64,000 nucleotides of DNA. It comes from a plasmid. Where the stretch lies: the NCBI RefSeq assembly GCF_056746865.1, contig NZ_JBWKMP010000005.1, one strand, 5' to 3'. This document shows positions 1 to 9,000 of the stretch, piece by piece. Every line of letters begins with the position of its first letter. Within the stretch, counting starts at the first letter, position 1. Position numbers: made by a program.

Positions 1-3000
1 CTGGTTCTCGATGCCCGTAAGAAAGCCAGCGAGAAGAAACAATTAAAACGTAAGGGATAAAGCCCCGAAGGGCTTTATCATTTCAGCCTGGCTGACTGTA
101 GAATCCAGTGATTTTTTCCGTTTTCGTCCAGGCCGTGTTCGTAAGCTGCAAGAGCCGCTTTCATTATTGCTGTTTTTGTCTGGCCTGTTCGCAGTGCTTC
201 CCGTTCCAGAATATCTTCGTAAACGTCCCCAAGCCGGACATTGGTCACTTTAGTTGCTCCCGATTTTTTGCGGGTAGCTTCATTGATGAATCGGGCTGTG
301 TCTGCATTGGTTTGTTCTGTTTTTTGTCCTGGTATTACCGGAGTTTTCAAGTCAAGAGCCATTATATCACCTTTCGTGTGTTACATTAGCTTTACTGTGT
401 AAAGTTAATGATGTAAAGCTGTCGTATTACATCCATTAGGGATTGATGCCTAACTCTTGCGCCAAAAGCTCTATTTGTGCTTTAGCTGTAGAAAGGCTGG
501 ATGCGCGACGTACATCATGAACGCCAGCGCCTTCATTACAGGCCGCTTCAAAAATATCTAAATCTGAAATACGTGTACGAAGTGGCTGTATCCACACCGG
601 GTTCTCCCGGAGTAACTTGTCGAGATCAATCGCTGCTTTTCTGTGGCGTGGTTTTGTCGTGTTAATTCTCGTGAAAAGTACCCAGGGTTGCAGGTCTGGA
701 TTGATCTGTTGAGCTGTGCGAACTTTTTCTGTTACATGAGTCAGCGTTTCTGCTTCGAAATCTGAAGACGGCTTAACGAGAGTAAGCAGAATGTCAGCTA
801 CAGTTAAGGCACTGCGAAATTCCTTGCTGTCATGCCCTGGACAGTCAATGATCAGCACTTCACATATTTTTTTCAGGCGCTTAATGACTTCTGATACATC
901 GCCATACTCTTCATAAACAGGAACCGGTAATAAGCCATTCTGCTTTCTTTTTTCGTTCCAGCTAAGAATATCATTGTTTTTATCGGTCTTCAGAATGATG
1001 ACCGTTCGTGAATTATTTACCAGATAAGAAGCCAGGTTTGTTGCTGTGGTGCTTTTTCCTACACCGCCTTTATCTGATGCGACAAGTAATGCTCTCCCCA
1101 TAGAAACCTCGGATATACAGTGTAAAGGTTTATTTGTCTTTACATTGTATTCATTATAGTTACGTTGTAAAGATGTTTGTGTCTTTACAATGTAATTGTT
1201 TTTGTGCTTTACATTGTGTGTATGTTACCCAGTGCGCCGTAAAGCCCCGTCCTTCAGGTCGGGGATATAAGGCGCGGTTTTCCACCTAACTAGGTGTTTG
1301 CTGTTGTTCAATGTATTGGCGGATGATGGATATTGGCGCACCTCCGCAGCTACTGGCAAAATAGCTGGGACTCCATAAAACGCCTTTGTAGTAATACCTG
1401 ACTGCAATATCTGGTCGATCTCGTCGCAATAATCTACTCGATACGCCCTTGAGACTGTTCACCAGGGTGGATATCGCCAATTTGGGAGGATAGTTAATTA
1501 GCAGGTGAACGTGATCTCGTTCTCCATCCATTTCAACCAGTTCAGCTTCAAAATCAGCACATACACTTGAAAAGTAAGTGCGTAGTTTTTCTATTGCGTC
1601 ATGGTCAAAAATCTGGCGTCGGTACTTGGTAACAAAGACCAGGTGAACGTGCATCAGGAAGACACAGTGCCTTCCACGTCGGATATCGGTTTCTTTTTTC
1701 ATAGGCCAAAGTATAATTTGGCATATGAAACGACTACAAGCTTTCAAATTCCAGTTAAGACCAAATGGAAAACAGGAGCGTGAAATGAGGCGCTTCGCGG
1801 GCGCATGTCGTTTCGTTTTCAATCGTGCTCTGGCGCTTCAGAATGAGAATCATGAGGCCGGGAACAAATATATTTCTTATGCAAAGATGACTTCCTGGCT
1901 GGTTGAATGGAAAAATGCTACTGAAACGCAATGGCTTAAAGATTCTCCCTCACAGCCATTGCAGCAGTCACTGAAAGACCTTGAGCGAGCCTACAAAAAT
2001 TTCTTTCAGAAGCGTGCCGCTTTTCCCCGATTCAAAAAGCGGGGACAGCATGATGCATTCCGCTATCCGCAGGGTGTTAAGCTCGATCAGGAAAACAGCC
2101 GTATTTTTCTGCCGAAACTGGGCTGGATGCGCTACCGGAACAGCCGTCAGGTCACGGGTGTTGTGAAAAATGTCACTGTCAGCCAGTCCTGCGGTAAGTG
2201 GTACATCAGTATTCAGACAGAAAGTGAAGTATCAACTCCGGTTCACCCTTCAGCATTAATGGTCGGGCTGGATGCTGGCGTGGCTAAACTCGCCACGCTG
2301 TCAGATGGCACGGTCTTTGAGCCTGTAAACAGTTTTCATAAAAACCAGAAGAAGCTGGCGAGACTTCAGCGCCAGTTAAGCCGCAAGGTTAAATTCAGCA
2401 ACAACTGGCAGAAGCAGAAACGCAAAATACAGCGACTGCATTCCCGTATCGCAAATATCCGCAGGGACTACCTTCACAAAGTCACAACGACCATCAGCAA
2501 AAACCACGCAATGATAGTCATTGAGGATTTGAAGGTCAGCAACATGTCAAAGTCAGCCTCGGGTACGGTCAGCCAGCCGGGGCGCAATGTCCGGGCAAAA
2601 TCAGGTTTAAACCGTTCGATACTGGATCAGGGCTGGTATGAAATGCGCCGTCAGCTTGAGTACAAGCAGCTCTGGTGTGGCGGTCAGGTGCTTGCTGTTC
2701 CGCCAGCGTACACAAGCCAGCGTTGCGCGTGCTGTGGTCATACAGCGAAAGAAAATCGCCTGTCACAAAGTCAATTCAGATGCCAGGTATGTGGATATAC
2801 AGCGAACGCCGATGTAAACGGCGCTCGTAACATTTTAGCGGCGGGGCACGCCGTTCTTGCCTGTGGAGGGATGGTGCAGTCAGGCCGCCCGTTGAAGCAG
2901 GAACCCACCGAAATGATTCAGGCGACAGCCTGAACGTAGCAGGAATCCACGTCCTTCAGGGCGTGGAGGATGTCAAAGGGTAACTTTTCAGGATGCGATT

Positions 3001-6000: not shown

Positions 6001-9000
6001 TAACTAGGTGTTTGCTGTTGTTCAATGTATTGGCGGATGATGGATATTGGCGCACCTCCGCAGCTACTGGCAAAATAGCTGGGACTCCATAAAACGCCTT
6101 TGTAGTAATACCTGACTGCAATATCTGGTCGATCTCGTCGCAATAATCTACTCGATACGCCCTTGAGACTGTTCACCAGGGTGGATATCGCCAATTTGGG
6201 AGGATAGTTAATTAGCAGGTGAACGTGATCTCGTTCTCCATCCATTTCAACCAGTTCAGCTTCAAAATCAGCACATACACTTGAAAAGTAAGTGCGTAGT
6301 TTTTCTATTGCGTCATGGTCAAAAATCTGGCGTCGGTACTTGGTAACAAAGACCAGGTGAACGTGCATCAGGAAGACACAGTGCCTTCCACGTCGGATAT
6401 CGGTTTCTTTTTTCATAGGCCAAAGTATAATTTGGCATATGAAACGACTACAAGCTTTCAAATTCCAGTTAAGACCAAATGGAAAACAGGAGCGTGAAAT
6501 GAGGCGCTTCGCGGGCGCATGTCGTTTCGTTTTCAATCGTGCTCTGGCGCTTCAGAATGAGAATCATGAGGCCGGGAACAAATATATTTCTTATGCAAAG
6601 ATGACTTCCTGGCTGGTTGAATGGAAAAATGCTACTGAAACGCAATGGCTTAAAGATTCTCCCTCACAGCCATTGCAGCAGTCACTGAAAGACCTTGAGC
6701 GAGCCTACAAAAATTTCTTTCAGAAGCGTGCCGCTTTTCCCCGATTCAAAAAGCGGGGACAGCATGATGCATTCCGCTATCCGCAGGGTGTTAAGCTCGA
6801 TCAGGAAAACAGCCGTATTTTTCTGCCGAAACTGGGCTGGATGCGCTACCGGAACAGCCGTCAGGTCACGGGTGTTGTGAAAAATGTCACTGTCAGCCAG
6901 TCCTGCGGTAAGTGGTACATCAGTATTCAGACAGAAAGTGAAGTATCAACTCCGGTTCACCCTTCAGCATTAATGGTCGGGCTGGATGCTGGCGTGGCTA
7001 AACTCGCCACGCTGTCAGATGGCACGGTCTTTGAGCCTGTAAACAGTTTTCATAAAAACCAGAAGAAGCTGGCGAGACTTCAGCGCCAGTTAAGCCGCAA
7101 GGTTAAATTCAGCAACAACTGGCAGAAGCAGAAACGCAAAATACAGCGACTGCATTCCCGTATCGCAAATATCCGCAGGGACTACCTTCACAAAGTCACA
7201 ACGACCATCAGCAAAAACCACGCAATGATAGTCATTGAGGATTTGAAGGTCAGCAACATGTCAAAGTCAGCCTCGGGTACGGTCAGCCAGCCGGGGCGCA
7301 ATGTCCGGGCAAAATCAGGTTTAAACCGTTCGATACTGGATCAGGGCTGGTATGAAATGCGCCGTCAGCTTGAGTACAAGCAGCTCTGGTGTGGCGGTCA
7401 GGTGCTTGCTGTTCCGCCAGCGTACACAAGCCAGCGTTGCGCGTGCTGTGGTCATACAGCGAAAGAAAATCGCCTGTCACAAAGTCAATTCAGATGCCAG
7501 GTATGTGGATATACAGCGAACGCCGATGTAAACGGCGCTCGTAACATTTTAGCGGCGGGGCACGCCGTTCTTGCCTGTGGAGGGATGGTGCAGTCAGGCC
7601 GCCCGTTGAAGCAGGAACCCACCGAAATGATTCAGGCGACAGCCTGAACGTAGCAGGAATCCACGTCCTTCAGGGCGTGGAGGATGTCAAATAATTGCGA
7701 TTTTGCCTGGTGTGTTGTTGCGCCCGTAGCTCGCTGACGCTCACACGCGCAGTACAGCGCCCCGCCCTGCTGCAATGCACCAGGACGGCGTGAACTCGCT
7801 GGCGCTCGCGCTAACTGCGGCATTCTGCGGCGCAAATCAGCATGATCATAGCCTGTTGGTCTGTTCTGGCTTTGCAGGGCGAAGGGATGGCCCTGTGCAT
7901 CCTGGTATGTTCGTCAGCGGCTGCGCCGCGCTTCGGGGCGATGTGGCCCCGCTGCTCCCTGGTATTTTCTTTCGCCCCTTCTATCCGCTGGCGCGGATAA
8001 AAAAATGAGCAAACCATCAAATAACTTGCTGTTTTCAGGCAACAAATCTTGATAATACATCTAAATAGATGTATTATTGTTTCATCGAAAGGGGATTGGC
8101 TCCTTTCCTTCTTAAGTCCAAACGGACAGGAGATTTAAAATGAAATTCACTTCAACCACGAATCATGTTTTCACATTCGAACGAGTAACGCTTTGCACGA
8201 TTGTTCTTATTCATAAGGATACGGGACAACAGTATGTTGTCATATTTACGGATAACAATAAAATTCGTGACTATAAGACCGGAATTGTTTCTCAGTTTGG
8301 TGAACTTAAGCAGAGTGATATTGATTTAATTCTTTTCTATCGGGACGAATATGAAAAATATTTTGACTCGTTAAATAATGGCGAGGAGTATTTGAGTTTT
8401 AAAGAATATATCGGATGTATAAGGGGAAAATAAATTATGAAAGGTGTGATCAGGTTGCTGGAACAACCTGATCACGTTATCGACAATCAAAACTGAATGA
8501 GGTTTTTAAATGTCAACGCGGCAGATCGTACAGCTTGCTGACTCCCTTGTCAAAGGCTGGGAAACCAGAATTCCGGCAATGACGTGCACGGAGTGGGATC
8601 AATTCCGGTGGTGGTTAAACTACCTGCAAGGGTATGAAATGTTTTAAATAACCGGGATAAATTCATATATGGGGAGAGTGTCATGCTCTCCCTTTCTTAT
8701 TGTGTAAGCGAGTTGTATTACATATTTAGCTTTACGTTGTAAAGATTTTATTCGTTGTCTTTACAGTGTGGTGTGTTTTCCGGCGGTTGCGCTGCGCTTA
8801 GGGGTATGTGGCTTCGCTGCTCCCTGGTATTTTCTTTCACCCTCCTATTTGTCCGATGACTTTTGACAACAACGCTATTTGTAACTATAATTAGTTGCAT
8901 GTTGGCAAGGGATGGGATTATAGCGTATGGGGAAAGCAGATAAGCTACTGGCAAAATTTTTAAACAGTAAAAAAACGTTTGAATGGGATGAACTCGTTGT

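Follow-up and report, generated by a model that had tools for sequence, protein, structure and literature searches.

Among the systems described so far that lie closest to the element studied here, IS608 of Helicobacter pylori inserts at TTAC, uses TCAA as its right cleavage site and carries an AAAG left guide that recognizes TTAC, with a 10-nucleotide (nt) spacing (PMC3201880); it inserts in the lagging-strand template and is drawn to forks blocked by repressor/operator arrays (PMC5027513). Here we analyse a 64,000-nt stretch of plasmid DNA (NCBI RefSeq assembly GCF_056746865.1, contig NZ_JBWKMP010000005.1; hereafter the window) that carries two identical copies of an IS200/IS605-family insertion sequence (IS) related to IS609. 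The window is the mcr-1-type IncI2 plasmid pVE362, its positions 1–14000 matching AP018355.1 (reverse complement) with 0 mismatches. The explanation that we favour, with a probability of roughly 0.85, is that one IS609-like element was inserted twice, in separate events catalysed by its transposase TnpA, and that recombination later produced deletions.

IS609 is known from the chromosomal insQ/tnpA copy next to ydcO in Escherichia coli, and the plasmid element resembles it in gene layout and aligns with it from end to end over 1748 bp, at about 94% nucleotide identity; such chromosomal copies are present in 5015 of 5426 complete E. coli genomes, and RefSeq annotates some of these relatives as 'IS200/IS605-like element IS609 family transposase'. 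The plasmid element differs from IS609 by a nucleotide divergence of about 6%. With the plasmid's own copies set aside, those listed are 93.8–95.1% identical to it, and the conventional threshold for IS isoforms is about 95% DNA identity. The exact variant is rare: no more than 5 PLSDB plasmids and 3 E. coli genome records reach 99% identity. On mcr-1 plasmids the element has been seen before: 'two IS609 copies' were listed in 2018 on an mcr-1 IncI2-related contig of isolate ZJ859 (PMC6030559), and IS200/IS605 elements have been described as over-represented on resistance-bearing IncI2 plasmids (PMC8868234). Two IS609-like copies on an mcr-1 IncI2 plasmid are ordinary, already described biology and will not surprise a specialist. 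The portions of those two papers available to us give no insertion sites, empty sites, 13-nt offset, deletion derivatives or strand logic; what we add is the exact ends of the element, insertions that lie 13 nt apart, natural deletion derivatives and a strand-based argument against a conjugation model.

An earlier note on this DNA had reported two direct copies, identical over 1749 bp and each beginning after TTAC, and our sequence comparison bears this out: 1229–2977 and 5943–7691 are direct repeats with 100% identity, the shared identity reaches 4 nt further to the left (TTAC) and 0 nt further to the right, and the flanks diverge from the first base outside TTAC...A. Empty sites were reconstructed by joining the IS flanks and searched in PLSDB as 1000-nt queries, in line with the comparison to IS-free IncI2 plasmids that the note had proposed. 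At least 80% of the reconstructed sequence was covered by 517 records for site 1 and 237 for site 2, the top matches being 1001 nt long. In the IS-free plasmid pKpCol17mcr, site 1 reads ...GTATGTTAC^AGGGTAAC... and site 2 ...GCGACTTTAC^ATAATTGCG..., both TTAC^A (written out, ...GTGTGTATGTTAC-A-GGGTAAC... and ...GGGCGACTTTAC-A-TAATTGCG...). Because the empty sites read TTAC^A, the last A of each identical block (2977 and 7691) is target DNA and the element is 1748 bp long; the boundaries given previously therefore stand on the left and run one base too far on the right. Copy 1 occupies 1229–2976, following its target and left cleavage site at 1225–1228 (site 1, with a left flank found in 4 PLSDB plasmids), and copy 2 occupies 5943–7690, following the TTAC at 5939–5942 (site 2, with a junction found in only 2), the top strand of the element lying on the + strand in both. 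Insertion occurred 3′ of TTAC without the gain or loss of any target base and without target-site duplication.

Alignment of the two empty sites with each other reveals that the junctions are not homologous in position. The site-1 TTAC lies opposite TAAC and the site-2 TTAC, 13 nt further on, opposite TTTC, and each junction is at the only TTAC available at that place. Segmental duplication or gene conversion would have left both junctions at one homologous position, and the offset contradicts both; junctions 13 nt apart in homologous coordinates thus indicate two separate transpositions. The choice between two insertions and one insertion followed by duplication or conversion, which had been left open, falls to independent insertion. 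The description of the two positions as equivalent survives in that both copies sit between an operator-like array and a GC-rich module, and fails at the nucleotide level by those 13 nt. Each copy would have been placed by its own TnpA-catalysed single-strand 'peel-and-paste' event 3′ of a + strand TTAC and, by analogy with characterized family members, transposition would proceed through a strand-specific circular single-stranded DNA (ssDNA) intermediate. Most likely the first copy gave rise to the second by a short hop of about 3 kb and, because the copies are identical, this hop was probably recent. The plasmids in PLSDB that carry the site-1 junction (n = 4) or the site-2 junction (n = 2) all contain the identical IS, and the occupied sites represent one small lineage.

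The two copies bracket a segment of 2966 bp (2977–5942) with five open reading frames (ORFs), including genes for a J-domain protein and an MqsA-like helix-turn-helix protein, and the earlier note had predicted that homologous recombination could delete it. This deletion exists in nature: pHLJ109-16 (MN232197) joins the site-1 left flank, one IS and the site-2 right flank, and relative to the window it is without one IS copy and the 2966-bp segment, 4714 bp in total, exactly what homologous recombination between the direct repeats would yield. Such recombination would have given rise to plasmids of the pHLJ109-16 type, and a further deletion, ending at a third TTAC (8246–8249, + strand, inside an ORF of 97 amino acids), to pEC1266-mcr (OM038692). 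The latter retains the site-1 left flank and joins the right end of the IS directly to position 8250, making its deletion the larger. Two routes to it are possible: a former third copy at the 8246–8249 TTAC may have recombined with copy 1, or TnpA may have joined the right end to the downstream TTAC in an adjacent deletion. When plasmids were searched for an IS left junction at this third TTAC, none turned up.

The proteins place the element firmly in the IS200/IS605 family, in agreement with its previous assignment. TnpA, a Y1/HUH transposase of 138 amino acids (1286–1702, - strand), matches NF033573 with 146.1 bits against a cut-off of 55, and its best solved relative is IS608 TnpA (2a6m, E = 5e-21). 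In that alignment DHVHLL lies opposite DHIHIL and RQYIEQQ opposite KQYIENQ, and we take these two stretches to be the HUH motif and the segment with the catalytic tyrosine. TnpB, an RNA-guided nuclease of 402 amino acids (1725–2933, + strand), matches NF040570 with 390.8 bits against a cut-off of 100 and gives a full-length alignment with ISDra2 TnpB (8bf8/8exa, E = 1.8e-55). Its alignment to an AI-designed relative picks out GLDAGV, VIEDL and ADVNGARN together with a CxxC...CxxC zinc ribbon, and on our own reading these three stretches would hold the D, E and D residues of a RuvC-like catalytic site. The tnpB reading frame is intact. The genes diverge across a gap of 22 nt (in copy 2, tnpA is at 6000–6416 on the - strand and tnpB at 6439–7647 on the + strand), a layout that is presumably of the IS605/IS606 type, whereas we understand the genes of IS608 to be co-directional.

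At its ends the element closely resembles IS608. The left end (LE, 1229–1285, + strand) reads CCAGTGCGCCGT-AAAG-[CCCCG TCCTTCAGGT CGGGG], and the right end (RE, + strand, within 2806–2976) reads GAAT-[CCACG TCCTTCAGGG CGTGG]-AGGATG-TCAA, both belonging to repeat family D7. The bracketed parts form subterminal imperfect hairpins, without terminal inverted repeats; the guide tetranucleotides AAAG and GAAT stand 5′ of the LE and RE hairpin feet, respectively, and the element terminates in TCAA, 10 nt 3′ of the RE hairpin. We assume that GAAT corresponds to the right guide tetranucleotide for TCAA in IS608. The element shares with IS608 the use of TTAC as target and left cleavage site, the use of TCAA, at this spacing, as right cleavage site, the position of AAAG and the lack of a target duplication; the distance from TTAC to the LE hairpin foot differs, at 16 nt here and 19 nt in IS608 (PMC3201880). 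Four independent insertions of this IS type begin after TTAC| and finish at ...GGATGTCAA|, two of them being 96.6%-identical copies, carried by a P1-like phage-plasmid and, within a RelE/ParE toxin gene, by the IncI2 plasmid pMTY1887_IncI. With a Y1 HUH TnpA, a TnpB with RuvC-like domain and zinc ribbon, and insertion 3′ of TTAC, every structural feature that we tested fits the definition of an IS608/IS605-type element, and the element is complete and apparently active. The top strand of the IS contains 0 TTAC and its bottom strand 8; mononucleotide shuffles contain 6.1 on average, with none in 0.24% of them, and the same 0-versus-8 pattern is seen in both 96.6%-identical copies. The TTAC-free top strand looks like avoidance of self-targeting by TnpA, TnpB or both.

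The surroundings of the two sites are alike, each site falling within a short non-coding interval. Immediately to the left of site 1 is an array of operator-like repeats (TGTAAAG...CTTTACA units) with the parA promoter (1102–1221), inside which a promoter-like site lies at 1171–1144 on the - strand, and immediately to the left of site 2 is a paralogous array (5846–5921; both in repeat families D3 and D8). The last CTTTACA unit is separated from the TTAC by about 10 nt at site 1; at site 2 the gap is about 25 nt. To the right, the conserved start of a GC-rich module (GTTGCGCCCGTAGC), which occurs three times, begins 39 nt from site 1 and 27 nt from site 2. Module 1 (2994–3442, + strand; families D1, D4, D6 and I1–I3) comprises a GC-rich region with a long predicted hairpin, a sigma-70-like promoter (TTGATA-17-TATTAT, 3346–3374) with the 26-nt palindrome ATAATACATCTAAATAGATGTATTAT in its spacer, a ribosome-binding site and an ATG, the last two being shared by its paralogues at 3898–4175 and 7696–8145; a partial fourth copy lies at 8801–8842. 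Folded as DNA, 2978–3345 has a predicted energy of -77.4 kcal/mol on the - strand (z = -3.56) and a z of -2.07 on the + strand, and the genes downstream of the modules are on the + strand. From these features the module may plausibly pair an Frpo/ssi-like single-strand promoter with a repressible duplex promoter; single-strand promoters of this kind fit a leading region (PMC11541004).

Three full modules each have a + strand TTAC shortly upstream in the IS-free layout; two of these are followed by the IS and one by a remnant. This decayed IS609-like remnant (3826–3893, + strand; family D7), just upstream of module 2, reads TTAC|CCAG... and continues into an RE-like hairpin. It is also present in an IS-free plasmid (L001) and is part of the IncI2 backbone: an 81-nt probe was matched over at least 80% of its length in 240 plasmids; a cleaner fusion of an LE left arm with an RE right arm, about 46 nt long, occupies the same place in pMTY1887_IncI (L007:7815–7865). 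Outside the IS copies, the window contains 550 TTAC sites (281 on the + strand, 269 on the - strand), of which 65 are + strand sites on the leading side; by chance, and before selection, two live copies would fall near modules with a probability of about 1e-3, an estimate for which selection for harmless sites is the obvious confounder. Attraction to forks stalled at protein-bound operator arrays, together with such selection, would explain where the copies lie.

The most serious competitor to this account of location is that insertion among TTAC sites was untargeted and that the positions reflect purifying selection alone, a 1.7-kb insert being harmless in few places other than such short non-coding intervals; we hold this to be a real possibility, if the less probable one. 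Most of the 550 sites are in genes or inside operator units (CTTTACA), related copies are found elsewhere, as in the toxin gene of pMTY1887_IncI and the P1-like plasmid, and sites 1 and 2 are occupied only in the one small lineage. Against it stand the present or past occupation of the upstream TTAC of all three modules, the chance estimate of about 1e-3 for two of the 65 leading-side sites and the documented attraction of IS608 to operator-blocked forks (PMC5027513). We dropped the idea of a general hot spot reused by other IS609 variants, only one identical variant being present at sites 1 and 2 (4 and 2 plasmids, respectively). Also set aside as evidence on site choice in IncI2 plasmids were CP100503.1, with four IS-matching places, and CP057405.1, one being a P1-like phage-plasmid and the other IncF.

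Some neighbouring observations concern the same sequences. The 96.6%-identical copy in pMTY1887_IncI (L007:5468–7798) interrupts a RelE/ParE toxin–antitoxin region of the leading region, follows TTTTAC and has the orientation of the window copies. A 45-nt LE/RE-like remnant was considered as a general companion of leading-region modules and rejected, the more than 1000 hits covering only its LE-like part; this part is 91–94% identical in these plasmids, which number over 1000 and are for the most part large ones from Klebsiella, with Salmonella and others also represented. Of the two loci checked (L009:4001–4044 and L010:4001–4044), one, in a P1-like IncY plasmid, lies directly upstream of a tnpB-only gene and is the left end of that gene's element; the other belongs to a Klebsiella IncFIB/FII plasmid, where parB and umuDC are separated by 2.6 kb without annotation. 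The TGTAAAG...CTTTACA type of unit, about 48 nt long, also occurs at 10081–10128, 10207–10254 and 10626–10677 within the first 11 kb, and the recurrence of these arrays suggests that several loci are served by a single regulator or centromere-binding protein. The ParA-type gene (436–1101, - strand) is followed by a 94-amino-acid ORF (78–362) resembling a ribbon-helix-helix protein. A sub-threshold Rfam match to GcvB at 10621–10751 (+ strand; 29.4 bits against a gathering score of 42, E = 0.0026) overlaps an operator-repeat unit and is probably due to chance.

A guide-RNA scaffold had been expected at the 3′ end of tnpB, and this prediction gains support from three sub-threshold Rfam matches that are co-located at 2806–2989, and again on the corresponding part of copy 2: HgcC (2866–2989; 32.7 bits, gathering 50), RAGATH-18 (2860–2903; 28.1 bits, gathering 44.9) and sot0042 (2806–2967; 18.7 bits, gathering 88). 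We take these to be TnpB-associated families whose transcripts overlap tnpB 3′ ends. The predicted omega-RNA scaffold (2806–2976, + strand; RNA fold z = -2.9) consists of the tnpB 3′ end and RE, agreement being best over the RE hairpin and the GGAGGAUGUCA tail. The likeness to ISDra2 TnpB and its omega RNA (also called reRNA) covers the full-length protein and, presumably, this hairpin and tail. In ISDra2 the guide is reportedly the DNA flanking RE. If the same applies here, with the transposon target serving as transposon-associated motif (TAM), the guide of copy 1 would be AGGGTAACTTTTCAGG (2977–2992, + strand) and that of copy 2 ATAATTGCGATTTTGC (7691–7706, + strand), each of which, preceded by TTAC, reconstitutes the corresponding empty site; the TAM would be TTAC, as opposed to TTGAT in ISDra2.

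Neither TTAC+AGGGTAACTTTTCAGG nor TTAC+ATAATTGCGATTTTGC occurs as a target elsewhere in the window. Both match the unoccupied sites of pKpCol17mcr exactly, and hundreds of IS-free IncI2 plasmids closely match the reconstructed empty sites. Each copy would make TnpB and an omega RNA guided by the DNA to the right of RE, and the complex would cut the TTAC-flanked empty site, favouring retention of the IS. A bolder proposal is that the two nucleases cut IS-free sibling plasmids in cells that take one up or already contain one, with elimination or homing as the outcome (a plasmid-level gene drive), and that the array and module stretch is a true IS609 hot spot through fork stalling or hairpin extrusion. 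We consider this combination doubtful.

The strand on which the element lies bears on when it was inserted. The active top strand of the IS (TTAC, LE, tnpB sense, RE) is the + strand, and all IS insertions checked in IncI2 plasmids share one orientation. The mobC–relaxase operon is at 13887–18538 on the + strand, and the origin of transfer (oriT) likely lies in the non-coding, repeat-rich DNA at 13.5–13.9 kb; the insertion sites are 6–12.6 kb from this putative oriT, in the putative leading region, and the genes at 3.4–9.5 kb are oriented towards it. As a rule, relaxase operons enter the recipient last. Leading-region genes, for their part, are oriented for transcription from the incoming strand (PMC11541004). 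Together, the relaxase-last rule and this orientation point to the - strand as the transferred (T) strand. The ssDNA in the recipient would then carry the inactive bottom strand, with GTAA rather than TTAC, and the + strand would be the one retained in the donor and newly synthesized in the recipient. The MOBP-type nick motif YATCCTGY has 15 matches in the window, none of them at 13.5–13.9 kb, and no IncI2 oriT nick site came to light in a search of the literature; because the nick site was not located, the T strand is something that we infer. The motif count itself, over the whole window, compares with 6.9 expected and was reached in 0 of 100 shuffles.

Replication offers a better fit. The rightward-transcribed repA gene lies just beyond the left edge of the window, and IncFII/IncI1-type replicons replicate unidirectionally away from repA. 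GC skew on the + strand is positive in 14 of 16 4-kb windows, with a cumulative rise to +0.46 across the whole stretch. The + strand would accordingly be the lagging-strand template of a rightward fork from repA, a source of ssDNA that suits the active strand better than conjugation does. The earlier note had tied the insertions to DNA made single-stranded during transfer; on this view the leading region, single-stranded in the recipient, would be a preferred target. In its favour, IS200/IS605 elements need ssDNA targets (PMC3201880) and the sites lie in the putative leading region. The polarity does not fit: the + strand carries TTAC and the active top strand, the inferred T strand being the - strand, which makes insertion during conjugation improbable.

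A single insertion followed by segmental duplication or by gene conversion between the paralogous modules is less probable still. It would account for copies that are 100% identical between flanking modules that are only 94–97% identical, and for the presence of both in the same type of interval; it is at odds with junctions that are 13 nt apart, each with its own TTAC where the homologous position reads TAAC or TTTC, with immediate flanks that differ from the first base outside TTAC...A and with the persistence of both empty sites, intact, in hundreds of plasmids. That one copy is an assembly duplication is scarcely credible: assemblies are well known to go wrong at identical repeats of 1.7 kb, but each copy has unique flanks on both sides, the deletion derivatives with hybrid flanks need a two-copy ancestor, the 2018 paper lists two copies on an mcr-1 IncI2-related contig (PMC6030559), and the occurrence of the arrangement, with the same flanks, in two independent complete plasmids (pVE362 and p2017.06.05CC_4), together with the 0-mismatch match to pVE362, indicates that the repeat is real.

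Several points nonetheless weigh against the reading that we prefer. In the PLSDB junction searches, none of the plasmids combined one copy with an undisturbed intervening segment, so that either copy may have been the first. Selection for neutral sites alone could have produced the near-equivalent locations. Both the direction of IncI2 vegetative replication and the identity of the T strand are deduced from gene orientation, GC skew, the rule that relaxase operons enter last and the likeness to IncFII/IncI1 replicons. An older LE/RE-like remnant between repA and hok (L004:2259–2300, in p2017.06.05CC_4) has the opposite orientation. This chimera, which lies outside the window and is also found in L002 and L003, reads CAGTGCGCC-TTATAT-CCCCGTCCTTCAGGGCGTGGAGGATGTCAA, its last 32 nt being 97% identical to RE.

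For mcr-1 IncI2 plasmids, the IS pair explains a family of leading-region deletions, represented by pHLJ109-16 and pEC1266-mcr. The practical value of these results is mostly in annotation and epidemiology, in that the true ends of the element are defined and the copies are to be counted as separate events. More generally, finding an IS200/IS605 element in a leading region is not enough to identify the T strand as its target, and in the present case the polarity favours the replication fork. A hot spot, if true, would explain the presence of an IS or an IS remnant at all three modules and, more speculatively, plasmid-borne TnpB guides that match IS-free siblings could act in competition between plasmids.

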